From contig JAHQWJ010000124.1 of the NCBI GenBank assembly GCA_029856125.1, positions 1 through 18,934 on the forward strand: a stretch of DNA of 18,934 bases, written 5' to 3'. The position numbers were made by a program, and so were the translations under genes. This document shows positions 10,463 through 18,934 of this stretch, one piece after another (position 1 is the first letter of the stretch; every line of letters starts with the position of its first letter). Below the pieces are notes generated by a model. The model was not told where the DNA came from and made no database searches. It saw only the letters and a list, made by a program, of their open reading frames with translations. The DNA is from Promethearchaeia archaeon. Lineage in GTDB: Archaea; Asgardarchaeota; Lokiarchaeia; Sigyniarchaeales; SOKP01.

Positions 10463-10669
10463 CTATTTCTTAATAGATTTTCTTTCCCACCAATCATTAT
10501 CTTTATTAATTTCTTCCTCAACTTCAATTTCTCCTGGAACCCAGTTTGAACAATCTAGATATTTCCAAAAAGTATTTTCATTAACGTATGGATTTTCTTC
10601 CTTTATGGGAATAATATTACTTTCGATTATAATCTGACTTTCAATTTTTTCCAGAACTCGTTTTTCCAT
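10463..10669 (-). CDS. Small hypothetical protein A (68 aa), paralog of 11114-11290
   Basis: GGAGGTGA ribosome-binding site at 10674-10681; shares D-x-S-x3-PG-x-IE-x-E with the neighbouring small ORF. Confidence 0.75.
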   Translation of the reverse strand: MEKRVLEKIESQIIIESNIIPIKEENPYVNENTFWKYLDCSNWVPGEIEVEEEINKDNDWWERKSIKK

Positions 10670-10674
10670 TATCT

Positions 10675-10797
10675 CACCTCCAATTTTTTTTACTTTTCCT
10701 GAGGTGCCGGATTCCGCGATGATCTCGATTTAATTATATTAATTTCTTTGATGAGAGAGCAAATTAAAAAGAAGATCGAAAGGGATCGGCTCTCATC
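10675..10797 (-). promoter_or_regulatory. Putative attenuator/RNA switch, unit A
   Basis: Helix 1:3 (10790-10797 with 10750-10757), alternative helix 2:4 (10762-10790 with 10706-10735), and anti-SD CACCTC (10701-10706) complementary to GAGGTG (10675-10680). Confidence 0.6.
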
Positions 10798-10889
10798 TAT
10801 AATAATAATACTACTACTACTACTACAACGCCTAATAGAAGGCTGATAACTTTTACATATGAAAATTTAGTAGTATTATTTGAGATCAT
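10797..10889 (-). CDS. Putative leader peptide A, MISNNTTKFSYVKVISLLLGVVVVVVVLLL (30 aa)
   Basis: ATG about 24 nt downstream of TTTAAATA (leaderless spacing). GTT-(GTA)6-(TTA)3-TAG run ends exactly at the hairpin. Confidence 0.65.
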   Translation of the reverse strand: MISNNTTKFSYVKVISLLLGVVVVVVVLLL

Positions 10890-10912: not shown

Positions 10913-10920
10913 TATTTAAA
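10913..10920 (-). promoter_or_regulatory. TATA box for unit A
   Basis: TTTAAATA on the minus strand preceded by purine-rich BRE-like AAATGAAACA. Confidence 0.55.
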
Positions 10921-11088
10921 TGTTTCATTTTTTATCCCCATTTTATAAAAAATCATATGAATATAATGAATTTAATATTATGACTTCTAAACTCTTTTAA
11001 AACTGACTATCTATCAATTAAATTAACCTAGAAGCCTTAAGAATATAGATTCTCCAAAATCTTATCGTTCAGAACCAATAAATAATAG

Positions 11089-11113: not shown

Positions 11114-11290
11114 TTATTTAGACAGTTTTTTGTATTTTTGTCTCAGATAAGCCATTTTACTTTGGTCCTCGCTTTCAATTTTACCAGGATAAGCATCTGA
11201 AATATCAAAAGACATCATTATGGGAGCTAGATCAGAACTCCAATCTTGATAATACTCCAATATTGATTCAGGACCTATTTTTTCAGCCAA
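11114..11290 (-). CDS. Small hypothetical protein B (58 aa from TTG 11290), paralog of 10463-10669
   Basis: GGAGGTGA at 11299-11306 lies inside the ORF-track start region and 8 nt before in-frame TTG 11290; shared motif FDISDAYPGKIESE. Confidence 0.72.
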   Translation of the reverse strand: MAEKIGPESILEYYQDWSSDLAPIMMSFDISDAYPGKIESEDQSKMAYLRQKYKKLSK

Positions 11291-11439
11291 TTCTCTTTTC
11301 ACCTCCATTCTTTTTTTTAGAATTTACGGCGAGAATTAAGCCCTTATTCCTCTTTTTTCTTAATAATTGAAAGGTTTTTTACTCAGAGAATAAATCCAAA
11401 AAATTATAAGAAAAAGAGAGAAAAAAGGATTTATTCTCT
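11285..11439 (-). promoter_or_regulatory. Putative attenuator/RNA switch, unit B
   Basis: Perfect 13-bp inverted repeat (11427-11439 / 11385-11397) around a U-rich loop; alternative ~26-bp helix (11402-11429 / 11341-11368); hairpin 11285-11342 covering the SD and TTG start. Confidence 0.65.
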
Positions 11440-11529
11440 TCATAATACTGTTACTAAGGGAATAATATTAAAGGCCTTCTTCGTACATTGGCCAACCCAT
11501 GAACCAGTATTATGCCGTGAGAAATTCAT
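11440..11529 (-). CDS. Putative leader peptide B, MNFSRHNTGSWVGQCTKKAFNIIPLVTVL (29 aa)
   Basis: ATG about 27 nt after TTTATTAG; stop TGA directly abuts the 13-bp hairpin; same length and position as leader A. Confidence 0.55.
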   Translation of the reverse strand: MNFSRHNTGSWVGQCTKKAFNIIPLVTVL

Positions 11530-11719
11530 TAATTATATGCATAAAGTAAATACATACTAATAAATATTGTGGGTGTTAATTCCCATTTGTTTGAGTATTT
11601 GAAAAATCTTTGACAATAGCGTAAATAATTTTATTCAATAACTCTTTAAACTCATTAAACATTACCACAGATATTATATCACTAATAGATATAATTTACT
11701 TAATTAACATTAGAGAATA

Positions 11720-13208: not shown

Positions 13209-14147
13209 ATGAAATCTAATAAAATCGATTCTTCTGATGAGAAGATAACAAAAGCAACAGAATTACTCTGGAAGATTTGGTGGTTTAGTTTTTATTTGAT
13301 AATTGTTCCATCATTAATCGCAGTTGTAGGATTTTTCATTTATTTTTTTATAGGTAAAGACCTTATTGTCTCAGTTGGTTTGTCTATTATAACTTTTATG
13401 TTTGTTTTATTATTCTTTTATAAGTCATTTGACAAATACAGGAAAACTCCCTTTTTTTCCAACAATGTAAATAATCTTTCCGCAAGAATCAATATTATTT
13501 TCTTAATTACTATCCTATCTTTAATCGTTACGCCTATTTTTGTGATATTTACTCCAGGAGATAACTACTTTGAGCTTTTACCTTTAATTTCTTTTAGTAT
13601 CTTGTATAATATTGTATACTATTATTATTATTTTCAACCCATTGGTTTTTTTGATCCTTCAGAAGATAAATTCAATCATGCAATTTCTTCGTCGCAAATT
13701 ATTAGACAACCCTATAATATCATAATCCTTGTGAATTACATTGTTCACATAGTATTCCTCTCTTATACTTTCAATACAAAAGTCTCGTGGTTATTTCCTC
13801 TCATTTGGAACATCGTATTTTATGTTATTTCTCGAGTCTCTAGCGTAAAAATCTGTAAAAATATTAAGATTTCGATCAGCAGCAAGAAACCGTTCATAGT
13901 AGACTTGACAATTTTTAAGAAAAAATTTGTAAATTCTTTATTAAGCTTAGTATTCGTGCTCTTAATTCAAATGCCTTTCGTTATAGTTATCGTCTACATG
14001 TATGTTGGTATTCATCACGACTTAATAGAAATCGTAAACATATCGTTGTTGTCTCTCGTGTTTTTAGCATTTTACTTTAAAATTAGATTATACGTAAGTT
14101 CATTCTACAGTACATTTCTAAGGAGGTTCAAAATCAATGAGTTCTAA
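13209..14147 (+). CDS. Hypothetical polytopic membrane protein (~8 TM)
   Basis: 312-aa ORF of alternating hydrophobic segments and short charged loops; its end overlaps the next ORF by 11 nt. Confidence 0.75.
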   Translation: MKSNKIDSSDEKITKATELLWKIWWFSFYLIIVPSLIAVVGFFIYFFIGKDLIVSVGLSIITFMFVLLFFYKSFDKYRKTPFFSNNVNNLSARINIIFLITILSLIVTPIFVIFTPGDNYFELLPLISFSILYNIVYYYYYFQPIGFFDPSEDKFNHAISSSQIIRQPYNIIILVNYIVHIVFLSYTFNTKVSWLFPLIWNIVFYVISRVSSVKICKNIKISISSKKPFIVDLTIFKKKFVNSLLSLVFVLLIQMPFVIVIVYMYVGIHHDLIEIVNISLLSLVFLAFYFKIRLYVSSFYSTFLRRFKINEF

Positions 14148-17100
14148 CAATGCTGAAGAGGTTGACACTGGTGAGATTAAAAATTTTATCAAGTTAAATT
14201 TCGTTGTCTCAGTCAGTTTAATTATTCTAATCTTCTCAATTTCATCATTGAATAATAATCCTTTAATCAGTGTTATTGCATTGCCAATACTTTTTATTCT
14301 CACCTATTACGAAGAAAGAGCGAACTTTATTACTACTTTTTACAGTAAGTACATATATCTATTTAATAGCCTAGGCATGGTAATCATTGTAATCTTCTGG
14401 ATCTTGCCGTTTTTTGGAATATTGCAGTTTCTTTTTCTCACCCTTTCCTTATATGTAATATTTTATATTTTTGAGAGGCTAAAGTATTTTCAAGAAAAAA
14501 CGGTATTAATAATTCAAAACCTGCTTGTTGTTGCCAGTTTTACTATTATTTTGTATTCTTTCTTCCCAATAATCGAAATCGTATACATACAGTTCATTGT
14601 AGATCCAAGTGTGCTTTTATTCTCCAATATATTAATTCACACTTTTATCGTCTTAGCCATAACATTATTATCGTTTTATTTTTTATATGCTCGCATTCGA
14701 TTATACGAAAAACCTTGGAAACTCTTTAATTATTGTATTGTGACTCTTTTTTTACTATTAGAAACGACTTGGTTTGCATTAGTTATTATTAAGAATCTAG
14801 CATTAGGAATTCTTGCAGTAATTCAAGGAGAATTAATATTTTACACAATTCTACTTCCAATAGTTTTCCTTTTATTCGTGCTTTTCAACTATATTATTCG
14901 CATATTCTCTCGAGAAATCAGCTTGAATTATAGCTATTATGCATGCTGGTTTTTGTTGTTCTCGATTTTTTTTACAATAATCATAATTTTTTGGAATAAT
15001 TTTGTGATTCTGCTTCTAGATTTAGTATTTCTTTCAGTTTTTACTTTAATTAACCTTAGATTTGGACACATTCTAAAAAAAGTAAAAGATTCTACCTTCA
15101 ATTTTATAATTAGAGTTGATAGTTTTGCGATTTTAATTGAAATTTTCTTATTATTTTATGGGATCTTCAGTTTTGTATTCCTTTTGGATGAATTCCTTGC
15201 TTTATTCCTTTCTTGTTGCATCATTGGCCTCATTTTTAATTTAATTCCTTCAAATGTAGTAATTATTCCTAGAAAAGTAAAAATAACTTGGACCTTACTT
15301 ATCTTGATATTTAGTATAGTGATTGCAGGGTTTTTCTTCTTAAGCGCAAATATAGATGAGATTTATGTATATTTAATTGCACCGATTATTTTTTGTTTCT
15401 TGGTTTTCGCTCCGATTTATTACCTGTATGGCGAAAAAGTATTAAAACCTAAATTCATCGCAATTTATACTTATTGTTCGTCATGGGTGCTCATGTTTTT
15501 GTTTTTCGCTTTGAATTTTTTTATAATTGTAATATACTTTGAACTACATCTAATTATTGGTACCATTTTTAACCTATTGTTTATAACCGTTTGTTTAATC
15601 ATCCTAATTTCATACGGAAAGAAAATAAGAATGCTTAAAGAATCAAAATCTAAGTCTCTTTTGAACATTATATCTTATCCCATTGTATTAGAAATATTTG
15701 CTATACTTATTACGATTTTCATGATTTATTTGAAATTAGACTTACTTTTATCTCTGTTTTTAACTCTAACGATAATAAGTCTTATAGTATCTATGGATTC
15801 AAAAGAACATAAACTCTTTCCTAAGGCCCTAACCTTAATATTAAATTCATTTACGTTATATTTAGGCTTATTTATGGTGGGATATTATAGTGCGATTTAC
15901 ACTAAGGACTCGTTCTTAGTTTATTTTATACCTCTCATTTTAGTTAGCTTGCTCTCTTATATTCCCATTTATTATCTCCGCAAAAGAAATGTTATAAATA
16001 AAAAATACTTCCTAATCTATCATTTTATTTGCTCTAGCATCATAGTGCTGTCTGTCTTTATATTTAACTTCTTTATAATTACTACATTGTTTTCACCAAT
16101 CTTAAATTGGTTAATCGTACTTAATATTCTCTATATAACTATTGCGTGTTATTACATTTTGAAATTTGGAGTTAAGATAAATGTTATCTCTATAGAAAAA
16201 GTTATGGTAATTGAAAAATATATTAGCTATTTAATAATGCTAGAAGTTTTCTTCATAATGTTCGCAATCTTTAACCAACAACTTCAATTTGAGCCGCTTT
16301 TTGCAGCGTACATATCGTTCGCTCTTACCTGCTTGATTATCAACTTTTTTACAAACAAGAGAATTTTATTTACAGAAAAAATTTCGATTGGATTTAATAT
16401 AGGAACTTTGCTTTTCACCAGTATTCTCATCTCGTTTTACTTAAATTTATTTCTATCTCCTTCGGTTTACGCATGTATTATCCCTCTGCTGATCTTAAGT
16501 GTAACACTGTTATTCCCTCTGTTTTACTCTTTAAATAAGAATGTGTTCACCAGCTTTGTGCAGAAATTGTTAACATTTGATAGTTTAGTCATATCTGGAT
16601 TAATAATTTCGCTTCCTTATATAATAGGATTAGATTTTATTAGATTAGGTATAGCTGTAGATTATTACATAATCAATAGTTCGGCAATTGCTTTATTTTT
16701 TGGATTTTTAGTTTTTCTAGAATTTCTTTTTGATAAATATAAGCTTAAAGAATCTTATTTCGTTTCTATTAAAACTTGCCAGATTTTCACCTGGGTGGTT
16801 TTATCTTTTGTTGTATCCTTGAAGATTTTTGCGGTTTTAAACTCTTTCACTAGTAATATTGGATTCAATATCAGTTGTTCTTCATTAGTATTTCTAGTTT
16901 TAAATCTTGTTATCTTAATTCCGCTCGAAAATCTCAAGCAGAGGGCATTTGAAAACGATCTAAGTAAATATGATTATTACAGAATCTACAAAATATACGA
17001 ATACACTAAAAACATATCTTATTTTTTCATCGAATTCATGATAGCTTCGCTTACTATTTTTCTGGTTCCGCTGCCTATCATTTATTCACTTCTTCAGCTC

Positions 17101-18934
17101 CAAGAGTCCCTACTATTAACATTAACTACATATGTTGGAATATTTCTGTTAAGTTACCTAGTAGTATCAACTATCAGTCGCTACTTATTCAAAATTGAAT
17201 TTTCAAGACTCAGATGGGCTTTTGATATATCCGCATGGTTAATAATTAAATTTTTAATGTGTTTCTATCTTTTAATATTCCCTGCCCAATTATCTCTTAT
17301 ACAAAGGATTGGTTTACCTTTACTAATTGTAGTCTTCCTCAGCCCTATTACAATTTATTATCTAAGAAATAACTTTTTTATCTCTGATGAAACTCTAATC
17401 CTTTGCAAAAGACTCATCTATTTTTCTTTCTATTTTTTCTTAATTATTATATTCAGTGAATTATACTGGAATTATAGTCAGATTATTCCATTTTACAGTA
17501 CAAATCAACCACTACGACTTAGTATTTTATTCTGTGGTATTTATTCGTTATGCAATTATTATCTGGTTAAATATAATGATAGAATTGAAAATGTTTCTGA
17601 ATTCAAACTAATGAAAATATTACTTGGTCCATCTCTACTTCTATTTACTTTCTTTTCTATTTTTCCTATTTTTCCGAGTGTTTTCGAATATTTTACTTAT
17701 GTATTTTTTATTATTATGATCTATCTCTTTATTTCAAATAGGAATCGCAATTTTGTTTTTCGAACTATTAGCTACTTCTCACTTACCTTGCTAATTTTAG
17801 TAAAATTAATTACAACTCTAAATTATTATATGTTAATTCCTTCATTCGATCTATTCGGCTTATCTTTTTATCTTTTTTATTTCAGTTTTTCGCTAATGAT
17901 TGTCTTATTCTTTTCTATTGTGTTAAACATAGGGAATGGTAATGTAATCGAAAAATTCACTTTATATACATTAATATCGATTATAACCTTTCTTTTACTA
18001 CTCTACAATACCATAATTCCTTTATTATATATCATTTCTTTCTCTCTGTTCTTATTTTTGTTATTAACAGGTAATTTCTACTACAAGCAAAAAAATGATA
18101 TTTACAAGTGGTTCATCCGACCCTGTGTTTTGCTTATGGTATTTAGCCTCATTAGTTTTCTGTCTTACTATATTCTATTTAATAATCCCACTTTTATAAA
18201 TTATAATCCAATACTGACATTCACTCTAACTTTAAGCGTTACTAGTATTTCTTATGTAGGGACCTATAATAAAGCCCCAGAGAAATTCAGACGGAATTCT
18301 TTCTATATTGCCTTTTCCTCCTATATTATTTCTATTCCAACTTTTATGTATTTTTTCCTAAATGCGTCTTTTAATTTACCTGTATGGGATCCTTTCTTGC
18401 TTATAATAACCATCAATATTGGTATCCTTCTTTTCTACCTATCAGTAGGCTTTTACTACTGGAAATTCTCTTGGGTAATATGGAAAATGGGGTGGAGGTT
18501 ATGGATTATTGTTCCCTTCTTAAATTTTTATATCATTAACGAGAGTTTTACTGACATTAATATTTATACCAACGCACTAGATTTCTTTGGGATCAACATC
18601 AGTGGTTCATTTATAATATCTTTTACAATTTGTGTTTTACTTTCTCTACCCTTTTGGTACACATGGATAAAAAAACATTTCTCCCGAATTCTACTAATAG
18701 TTTGGAGTTTTAGCTTATTCTTTTTATATTGGTTTAGTCAAAATGTTTTTACTGAAAATTTAGTGATTACTAATATAGTATTTTTTGTTTTTGCAGTATC
18801 TCTTCTAATGCCGGTTTTTTATAGAATGAGAATGTGGAAGGTTATTACTCTGTTATGGTTATTTTACATTTTTATAAATGTAAGCTTCCTCGTTATATTA
18901 TTCCAAGTAATTTTATTACCACTAGAGATTAACT
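14137..18934 (+). CDS. Giant polytopic membrane protein (>1599 aa, 3'-truncated by window)
   Basis: ATG 14137 (MSSNNAEEVDTGEIKNFIKLNF...) with AGGAGG at 14121-14126. Read codon by codon there is no stop to the window end. Almost entirely hydrophobic helices separated by short loops. Confidence 0.9.
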   Translation, partial: MSSNNAEEVDTGEIKNFIKLNFVVSVSLIILIFSISSLNNNPLISVIALPILFILTYYEERANFITTFYSKYIYLFNSLGMVIIVIFWILPFFGILQFLFLTLSLYVIFYIFERLKYFQEKTVLIIQNLLVVASFTIILYSFFPIIEIVYIQFIVDPSVLLFSNILIHTFIVLAITLLSFYFLYARIRLYEKPWKLFNYCIVTLFLLLETTWFALVIIKNLALGILAVIQGELIFYTILLPIVFLLFVLFNYIIRIFSREISLNYSYYACWFLLFSIFFTIIIIFWNNFVILLLDLVFLSVFTLINLRFGHILKKVKDSTFNFIIRVDSFAILIEIFLLFYGIFSFVFLLDEFLALFLSCCIIGLIFNLIPSNVVIIPRKVKITWTLLILIFSIVIAGFFFLSANIDEIYVYLIAPIIFCFLVFAPIYYLYGEKVLKPKFIAIYTYCSSWVLMFLFFALNFFIIVIYFELHLIIGTIFNLLFITVCLIILISYGKKIRMLKESKSKSLLNIISYPIVLEIFAILITIFMIYLKLDLLLSLFLTLTIISLIVSMDSKEHKLFPKALTLILNSFTLYLGLFMVGYYSAIYTKDSFLVYFIPLILVSLLSYIPIYYLRKRNVINKKYFLIYHFICSSIIVLSVFIFNFFIITTLFSPILNWLIVLNILYITIACYYILKFGVKINVISIEKVMVIEKYISYLIMLEVFFIMFAIFNQQLQFEPLFAAYISFALTCLIINFFTNKRILFTEKISIGFNIGTLLFTSILISFYLNLFLSPSVYACIIPLLILSVTLLFPLFYSLNKNVFTSFVQKLLTFDSLVISGLIISLPYIIGLDFIRLGIAVDYYIINSSAIALFFGFLVFLEFLFDKYKLKESYFVSIKTCQIFTWVVLSFVVSLKIFAVLNSFTSNIGFNISCSSLVFLVLNLVILIPLENLKQRAFENDLSKYDYYRIYKIYEYTKNISYFFIEFMIASLTIFLVPLPIIYSLLQLQESLLLTLTTYVGIFLLSYLVVSTISRYLFKIEFSRLRWAFDISAWLIIKFLMCFYLLIFPAQLSLIQRIGLPLLIVVFLSPITIYYLRNNFFISDETLILCKRLIYFSFYFFLIIIFSELYWNYSQIIPFYSTNQPLRLSILFCGIYSLCNYYLVKYNDRIENVSEFKLMKILLGPSLLLFTFFSIFPIFPSVFEYFTYVFFIIMIYLFISNRNRNFVFRTISYFSLTLLILVKLITTLNYYMLIPSFDLFGLSFYLFYFSFSLMIVLFFSIVLNIGNGNVIEKFTLYTLISIITFLLLLYNTIIPLLYIISFSLFLFLLLTGNFYYKQKNDIYKWFIRPCVLLMVFSLISFLSYYILFNNPTFINYNPILTFTLTLSVTSISYVGTYNKAPEKFRRNSFYIAFSSYIISIPTFMYFFLNASFNLPVWDPFLLIITINIGILLFYLSVGFYYWKFSWVIWKMGWRLWIIVPFLNFYIINESFTDINIYTNALDFFGINISGSFIISFTICVLLSLPFWYTWIKKHFSRILLIVWSFSLFFLYWFSQNVFTENLVITNIVFFVFAVSLLMPVFYRMRMWKVITLLWLFYIFINVSFLVILFQVILLPLEIN
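15061..16640 (+). repeat. Three protein-level tandem repeats of 184 aa (552 nt) within the giant membrane protein
   Basis: Anchors recur at exactly 552 nt: FG/YG/FG at 15061, 15613, 16165; EIF/EIF/EVF at 15139, 15691, 16243; PIYY/PIYY/PLFY at 15412, 15964, 16516. Confidence 0.8.

Follow-up and report, generated by a model that had tools for sequence, protein, structure and literature searches.

A putative ribosome-read leader peptide with a valine and leucine codon tail precedes a small orphan gene in Lokiarchaeia

In this study we consider a short open reading frame (ORF) on the minus strand of contig JAHQWJ010000124.1 from a Promethearchaeia archaeon of the Lokiarchaeia (GenBank assembly GCA_029856125.1, here genome G000). 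The whole stretch of 18,934 nucleotides that was analysed is referred to as the window. The ORF occupies positions 10797-10889, precedes a gene for a small acidic protein, here called protA, and ends in a run of seven valine and three leucine codons. Judging from how its frame is preserved among relatives, it is very probably a translated cis-regulatory leader. We also favour, with a good deal less assurance, the further view that the ribosome reads it as a leader peptide, and that the Val/Leu tail provides control codons through which protA would be adjusted to the sensed supply of amino acids.

The leader ORF of unit A and its open frame

The relatives with the same locus are metagenome-assembled genomes assigned to Promethearchaeota/Promethearchaeia (Lokiarchaeia, Asgard archaea), the closest of them being G048. 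On the minus strand, from 11560 to 10463, the locus is built of two tandem units, first unit B and then unit A. Unit A consists, in this order, of the 30-codon leader ORF, a hairpin, GGAGGTGA and protA (68 aa). Unit B has a 29-codon ORF (11529-11440), a 13-bp hairpin, GGAGGTGA and a second small gene, protB (58 aa). Unit A is present in 10 of 42 genomes of the genus, and the locus aligns at 70-88% DNA identity. The parts needed first are the following.

10797 to 10889, minus strand: leader-peptide ORF, 30 codons and a TAG stop, with start M-I-S-N-N-T-T and tail LLLG-V7-L3
10889 to 10887 (ATG) and 10799 to 10797 (stop TAG), minus strand: landmarks of the leader ORF, from the sequence
10913 to 10920, minus strand: TATA-like box TTTAAATA, 23 nt upstream of the ATG of this upstream ORF (uORF); box and 5' flank invariant in 10 species
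10800 to 10829, minus strand: Val7-Leu3 codon run, GTT and six GTA (10829-10809) followed by three TTA (10808-10800); candidate control codons and microsatellite
10463 to 10669, minus strand: protA, a 68-aa acidic protein, the presumed regulated gene and a divergent paralogue of protB

A minus-strand ORF of 30 aa at 10797-10889 ending in Val7-Leu3 had been described by a sequence-only reading of the window, and the description proved exact. The final 14 codons are those for LLLG, GTT, six GTA and three TTA; on recount valine, leucine and isoleucine indeed make up 17 of the 30 residues; and the TAC/TAA microsatellite noted in that reading is reported by Tandem Repeats Finder as (TAC)6 at 10809-10826 of the plus strand. 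The ORF listing extends the frame as far as an upstream ATG at 10928, which would give a 43-aa version. We rejected this start because it lies upstream of the TTTAAATA box, because it is AAG in G048 and because the paralogous leaders in other genera start with M-I-S-N-N/K-T at the position of ATG 10889. A box only 23 nt before the ATG suggests a leaderless or near-leaderless transcript, and with the transcription start placed by this spacing, the transcript of unit A is probably leaderless.

The ATG, the frame and the position of the stop are conserved in all ten unit A species. For the frame test, the limits were the conserved ATG and the conserved hairpin arm, landmarks that were picked independently of the frame. 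Across 55 leaders (10 of unit A and 45 of the protB type, falling into about nine divergent sequence classes) the ATG frame contains no stop in any leader, whereas the other two frames contain 170 and 130 stops, at least one in each of the 55. The difference indicates that the frame has been selected to remain open. Length differences among unit A leaders are all multiples of three, which is weak evidence, since whole-codon insertions and deletions are to be expected anyway in a triplet repeat.

Paralogous leaders have type-specific tails

The unit A leader is one of several related elements. Our covariance model R1, built on the stop and the following hairpin (P3) in all leader types and comprising 12 base pairs, matches four copies in G000, namely unit B, unit A, C126:25752-25901 and C129:2979-3122; a structural scan of the whole assembly gave the same result, and five relatives have one to four copies each. 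Six of the 12 pairs show changes on both sides across leader types, and the covariation score is higher than in all 500 shuffles. All four G000 copies begin with M-I-S-N-N/K-T or something close to it, have a hydrophobic tail and end with their stop at the conserved hairpin; the leader stop always lies -5 to +7 nt from the P3 arm. In the sister leaders, the ATG is preceded at a distance of 23-27 nt by TTTAAATA or TTTATAWA. Each leader type is single-copy with conserved synteny, being neither scattered nor mobile.

The genes downstream of the four leaders are protA, protB, an archaeal-type leuS and a FrhB/TrmB fusion gene. More specifically, the C126 leader lies 110 nt upstream of the gene for a 962-aa archaeal-type leucyl-tRNA synthetase (LeuRS; TIGR00395, 929 bits with a cut-off of 648), and the C129 leader precedes the gene for an FrhB/FdhB protein with a C-terminal TrmB domain. 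We counted the residues encoded by the last 10 codons in 29 leuS leaders (two genera), 14 FrhB/TrmB leaders, 10 protA leaders and 45 protB leaders; the values below are means, with ranges in brackets.

leuS leader tails (n=29): Leu 6.2 (5-8), Ile 0.03, Val 0.9
FrhB/TrmB leader tails (n=14): Leu 1.6, Ile 4.8 (4-7), Val 1.9
protA leader tails (n=10): Leu 4.5 (2-6), Ile 0, Val 4.7 (3-7)
protB leader tails (n=45), mixed: Leu 1.2, Ile 2.2, Val 1.5

The background in long ORFs of G000 is 9.9% Leu, 10% Ile and 5.7% Val. The leuS leaders use all six leucine codons (TTA, TTG, CTT, CTC, CTA and CTG). In sister leaders the two ends of the ORF change together, so that codons for NKTA pair with those for AVLL and codons for NNTT with those for VVLL. 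Since this pairing (helix P1, see below) needs only about four codons, it fails by itself to explain three conserved biases that extend over 10-14 codons. The conserved, type-specific tails, together with the position of the leucine type before its cognate leuS, constitute our main argument for control codons.

For unit A, the sequence-only reading had proposed to look in relatives for conserved Val/Leu identity accompanied by synonymous changes. The tail consists of Val and Leu in 10 of 10 species, at mean numbers of 4.7 and 4.5 in the last 10 codons and with no Ile, and some synonymous variation (GTA/GTT/GTG and TTA/CTT/TTG) was found. The same reading had regarded repeat lengths changing in other than triplet steps, or an ATG or frame that is not conserved, as evidence against the uORF; in the ten species the lengths of the Val/Leu runs differ by whole codons, Val and Leu dominate in all, and both ATG and frame are kept. 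The exact V7L3 length is not itself selected, the run being a slippage-prone triplet repeat.

Two of the sister loci have features of their own. The Ile-rich leader (C129:2979-4642, L125/L140) has a tail such as SIIIVAVLIR and is conserved in 14 species. The gene that follows encodes a protein of 474 aa in which an FrhB/FdhB-type iron-sulfur part is joined to a winged-helix domain of the TrmB type, an unusual fusion that looks like a redox-linked regulator. A search with PF00133 found no IleRS gene in the G000 assembly, which is rated 99% complete. LeuRS is encoded twice in G000, by an archaeal-type gene with the leader (C126:25957-28845) and by a bacterial-type gene without one (C94:20470-23262); the latter could be foreign, assembly contamination being 6%.

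RNA folds of the unit A and protB-type leaders

The helices of the unit A leader were obtained by single-sequence minimum free energy folding of 10 species and from the consensus fold. Their positions, in the direction of transcription, are as follows; where the Shine-Dalgarno (SD) sequence of protA is paired, the complementary strand is called anti-SD.

10882 to 10889, minus strand: 5' strand of helix P0', AUGAUCUC, the uORF start codon and the next 5 nt; pairs with GAGAUCAU
10868 to 10880, minus strand: 5' strand of helix P1, AAUAAUACUACUA, Asn-Asn-Thr-Thr codons; pairs with 10816-10804
10804 to 10816, minus strand: 3' strand of P1, UAGUAGUAUUAUU, inside the Val/Leu tail
10790 to 10797, minus strand: 5' arm of hairpin P3, GAUGAGAG, whose first base is the G of the stop codon
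10766 to 10770, minus strand: T5 run in the P3 loop, 27-31 nt after the stop codon
10750 to 10757, minus strand: 3' arm of P3, CUCUCAUC, from the consensus fold
10719 to 10726, minus strand: 3' strand of P0', GAGAUCAU, about 165 nt downstream of the start codon; pairs with 10889-10882
10701 to 10706, minus strand: anti-SD CACCUC, which pairs with GAGGUG of the protA SD in 10 of 10 species
10674 to 10681, minus strand: protA SD, GGAGGUGA, from sequence and alignment

P1 forms in all ten species, as a duplex of 9-13 bp with energies of -9.8 to -14.8 kcal/mol, and P0' is an 8-bp helix in their consensus fold. P3 is a 12-bp stem in eight of the ten and homologous to the 13-bp stem of sister leaders; R1 matches 10751-10808 of the window at 38.5 bits (E 0.003). 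The two remaining species, G000 and G048, have a common 12-nt deletion (TTTTTCTTGGAT; window 10758-10770 as compared with L011-L018), by which most of the ancestral 3' arm of P3 is gone and an 8-bp stem is left; the deletion may have weakened the switch in this lineage. A CTTTTTCTT-like tract is conserved in the P3 loop of all leader types, and the T5 run of unit A is a candidate archaeal oligo-T termination or pause site. Between P3 and protA, at about 10745-10730, there is an A/T-rich box that could be a separate protA promoter.

Rfam 15 gave no match at gathering score across the window. Its E-value mode returned only matches well below gathering (E 0.09-2.2), mostly to eukaryotic miRNA precursors but also to an lncRNA and a snoRNA family, one of each. 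Readings of the hairpin region as a C/D-box, H/ACA or K-turn element were dropped, as the box motifs were absent by eye.

The leader of unit B, representing the protB type, has two main parts.

11440 to 11529, minus strand: unit B leader ORF, 29 codons and a TGA stop, tail IIPLVTVL; conserved in 45 species of several genera
11385 to 11439, minus strand: unit B hairpin P3, a 13-bp stem AGAGAAUAAAUCC / GGAUUUAUUCUCU with a pyrimidine loop containing T6 and T5; from RNAalifold

RNAalifold, applied to 28-45 protB leaders without any prior, predicted four helices, P0, P1, P2 and P3. P0 is formed by UUUCAC of uORF codons 3-5 and GUGAAA of the protB SD, and is so nearly invariant that covariation is uninformative. 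P1, homologous to that of unit A, pairs the His-Asn-Thr codons with the last codons and the stop; P2 is a small hairpin in the middle of the ORF; and P3 is a 13-bp hairpin directly after the stop, with oligo-U in its loop. Over P0-P3, 98% of alignment cells are paired, compared with 40-51% when the partners are slid, and four pairs show double changes. P3 of unit B, which R1 scores at 73 bits, has a compensatory change from UA to CG. The motif AGUAUUAU before the stop is kept in genus g12 despite a different reading frame, which reveals a constraint on the nucleotides.

Two further candidates were set aside. Long-range pairing of the unit B codons for Ala-Ile-Ile-Pro with a purine tract further downstream was rejected, as the tract has diverged in the G022 group without compensation. 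There is also a second small ORF (11360-11443, minus strand), the AUG of which overlaps the leader stop (UUAUGA) and which crosses P3 and the U-rich loop. Its predicted product has 27 residues in unit B and 14-24 in leuS leaders (L096-L099); in unit A an ATG comes directly after the TAG. Since both frame and peptide differ between leader subgroups, we treated this ORF as incidental and not as a functional part; it may have a role in termination-reinitiation.

A possible mechanism and the points against it

If the Val/Leu tail does provide control codons, the leader might work as follows. A ribosome would load on the 5' AUG of the leaderless transcript during ongoing RNA synthesis. When Val-tRNA or Leu-tRNA is scarce, it would linger on the 10-14 consecutive Val/Leu codons and prevent P1 from closing, and once it is no more than a few codons from the stop it would also block the 5' arm of P3. 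With plentiful charged tRNA the ribosome would terminate and depart, allowing the form with P0', P1, P3 and the anti-SD helix to fold. The position of the leading ribosome would then set the output, be it transcription through the oligo-U site that follows the stop by 27-31 nt, exposure of the ribosome-binding site of protA, or both, and starvation might switch the gene either on or off.

The sequence-only reading had likened the run to the control codons of attenuator leaders. The likeness stands insofar as the uORF is conserved, lies in a cis-acting leader and has sister leaders with type-biased tails, including a leucine type before leuS. Other parts of the comparison lack such support, and we describe the leader as working like an attenuator rather than as a proven member of that class, since its gene is not of the kind that attenuators control and since no covarying pair of terminator and antiterminator helices was found. 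Making, charging or transporting the sensed amino acid, taken as the mark of a target gene, is found only for the leader before leuS and not for protA, for which Pfam, the profile search and the ESM Atlas revealed no tie to valine or leucine. No cognate leader was found before valS, bacterial-type leuS or metS of G000; the Ile-rich sister leader precedes the FrhB/TrmB fusion gene and not ileS. The U-run sits within the hairpin loop and not after a terminator stem as in bacterial terminators, and no mutually exclusive alternative helix with covariation was found in the leaders. Both strands of the anti-SD helix are invariant or vary by wobble only, and P0' is almost invariant with no compensatory change, so that neither helix provides covariation evidence.

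The nucleotide sequence of the tail adds to these points. GTA and TTA, the repeat units, make up 85% of the unit A tail, leaving little synonymous variation. The tail doubles as the 3' strand of P1, and its composition is partly forced by RNA pairing, since the sequence complementary to AAU-AAU-ACU-ACU spells codons for Val and Leu. A striking amino-acid run can thus come from an RNA helix combined with triplet slippage, and the run alone is no proof of control codons. Variability at codon positions 1, 2 and 3 of the unit A ORF is 0.19, 0.20 and 0.12, the third position being the most conserved; for protB the values are 0.10, 0.08 and 0.27, the usual coding pattern. Among unit A leaders, non-synonymous differences outnumber synonymous ones (370 vs 84 codon pairs). 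As positions 1 and 2 vary more than position 3, the peptide sequence as such is without purifying selection, and a conserved arrest sequence of the erm/cat type was not found in a peptide dominated by non-synonymous changes. Finally, the compared species are relatives, so that counts across them are not independent.

Alternative explanations

The uORF might gauge translation or ribosome loading in general, having no amino-acid specificity, with the Val/Leu tail as a by-product of P1 pairing and slippage. Under such a scheme it is easily understood that P1 joins the NNTT codons to the tail in 10 of 10 species, that N- and C-terminal codons co-vary in sister leaders and that the repeat changes in length by whole codons. 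The extent of the bias is another matter: P1 needs about four codons, yet the biased tails cover 10-14. The motif AGUAUUAU, kept in genus g12 though it is read there as Ser-Ile-Ile and not Val-Leu, speaks for this view, but leuS leaders hold 5-8 leucines by means of six codons even where P1 is weak, as in G000, and three leader types under the same structural constraint display three distinct biases across genera. The 5' end of the protB uORF (UUUCAC) pairs with the downstream SD, and mere occupancy of the uORF would unmask the latter. We lowered the by-product view to a rival in the light of the sister leaders, of which the Leu-rich one precedes leuS and the Ile-rich one the FrhB/TrmB gene; we consider it rather unlikely, though the most probable of the alternatives.

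A different possibility is that the ORF encodes a hydrophobic micropeptide acting in trans, either a single-pass or tail-anchored membrane peptide or a product resembling type I toxins, and that the RNA structure controls nothing but its synthesis. The sequence-only reading had offered a single-helix membrane micropeptide as its own alternative. The G000 peptide does have 17 uninterrupted hydrophobic residues at the C-terminus, but the run is down to 12 in G056, so that it spans 12-17 in the unit A type, and in sister leaders it is 6-10 residues long or interrupted by Gln, Asp or Arg. Pairing of the 5' end with a downstream sequence hides the start codon much as in the hok-type toxin mRNAs. 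The residues, however, evolve without purifying selection, codon positions 1 and 2 varying most, and the leader peptide has no Pfam match. The element is also single-copy, keeps its synteny with protA and protB and is not mobile. We find this alternative improbable; the leader family as a whole lends it no support.

It is still less credible, indeed very improbable, that we are dealing with a non-coding structured RNA, or with no more than a promoter and a terminator, and that the ORF is incidental: several stretches are invariant at all codon positions, helices explain much and third positions are the most conserved in unit A, but all 55 leaders have an open ATG frame and stops in both other frames, the stop always falls -5 to +7 nt from the P3 arm and the ATG is invariant.

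Relation to known regulatory systems

Regulation of protA by a ribosome-read leader peptide with control codons, the reading that we prefer, can be compared with several established systems. Leader-peptide attenuation is a textbook bacterial mechanism, exemplified by E. coli ilvL/ivbL, leuL and trpL, and by pheM before pheST. The Lokiarchaeia leaders share with these a short leader ORF, a stretch of codons just before the stop that specify a single amino acid or a few, helices that overlap the ORF and a downstream U-run; as in pheM-pheST, one member of the family precedes its cognate synthetase gene, leuS. Unlike bacterial attenuators, the present leader is archaeal and probably leaderless rather than SD-led, its U-run is within the post-stop hairpin loop and not after a GC-rich stem, the downstream SD is masked as well, and protA has no known tie to valine or leucine. 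T-boxes, which lead bacterial aminoacyl-tRNA synthetase genes, bind uncharged tRNA directly and without an ORF. With the leuS sister copy they have only a functional analogy, that of a cis leader coupling synthetase expression to the charging of the cognate tRNA; the Lokiarchaeia leader contains an ORF and matches neither the T-box nor any other Rfam family.

In mycobacteria, leaderless polycysteine short ORFs function as cysteine-responsive attenuators (bioRxiv 10.1101/834739). The similarity lies in a leaderless short ORF at the 5' end (here deduced from box spacing), consecutive codons for the same residue and control of a downstream gene (here proposed). Those attenuators (10.1101/834739) differ in being bacterial, in using cysteine and in having cysteine-related targets, whereas here the residues are Val and Leu and there is a conserved fold of P0', P1, P3 and the anti-SD helix. 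In translational attenuation of erm and cat genes, for example by ErmCL, a drug in the exit tunnel stalls the ribosome on leaders with conserved arrest sequences (PMC5499644). As in ermC and cat, the gene under control has its SD in a base-paired state, and the leader is expected to refold according to where the ribosome stands on its ORF; in contrast to them (PMC5499644), the Lokiarchaeia peptide retains its amino-acid bias but is otherwise poorly conserved in sequence. Our literature search found no description of such a leader in archaea.

protA, protB and other features of the window

The second of the two small genes is located as follows.

11114 to 11290, minus strand: protB, 58 aa; true start TTG 11290 and not the listed ATG 11308

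The start of protB was assigned to TTG 11290 because G003 has a 1-nt deletion between ATG 11308 and this TTG, and because in other species the position of the TTG is occupied by ATG. The listed 64-aa ORF from ATG 11308 is thus mis-started (11288-11308, minus strand), and GGAGGTGA falls within this listed ORF. In genus g12 the position equivalent to the TTG of protB is often CTG or TTG, so that the protB gene family appears to use non-ATG starts.

protA aligns with the protB family around LD.S...PGEIE.E.E. Neither protein matched a Pfam family, and the ESM Atlas search returned unnamed clusters only. A profile of both proteins found only 30 small representatives among 1.84 billion proteins. With the protB profile, the gene was detected in 92 of 131 genomes of the same taxonomic family and in 0 of 19 genomes of the order's other families. 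The AlphaFold model contains a short helix and a long C-terminal helix, with modest confidence (predicted local distance difference test, pLDDT, 75; predicted template modelling score, pTM, 0.36).

Upstream of the TATA box of unit B, at about 11560-11590 on the minus strand, there is a conserved motif ATGGGAA-N5-7-CCCAC. In genus g1 it forms an inverted repeat and in g12 a direct repeat, TGGG...TGGG, and it is a candidate transcription-factor operator. The window as a whole has a G+C content of about 31%, and its encoded proteins include PolB, DUF134 and ferredoxin-type proteins. On the plus strand, two overlapping ORFs lie in 13209-18933, one of 312 aa and the other, which leaves the window, of more than 1599 aa; neither has a Pfam match.

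Implications

Taking the four leaders together, we put forward, with slightly more doubt than conviction, that Lokiarchaeia possess a family of leader-peptide switches that are leaderless and respond, each of them, to a particular branched-chain amino acid: Leu for leuS, Ile for the FrhB/TrmB gene and Val/Leu for protA. To this family the window adds a member of the Val/Leu type. Model R1 is a defined RNA motif that can be used for annotating these genomes, and the leaders give an entry point to protA and protB, two small orphan proteins restricted to one archaeal family. If the idea of such a switch family is true, both orphans would take part, as new members, in a response to branched-chain amino acids or to translation stress. 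It would also mean that the archaeal lineage nearest to the eukaryotes senses amino acids by way of a ribosome reading a leader, and hence has functional coupling of transcription to translation or of translation to folding of the RNA; in Asgard archaea this coupling would draw on archaeal components, these being a TATA promoter, leaderless initiation and an oligo-U site.

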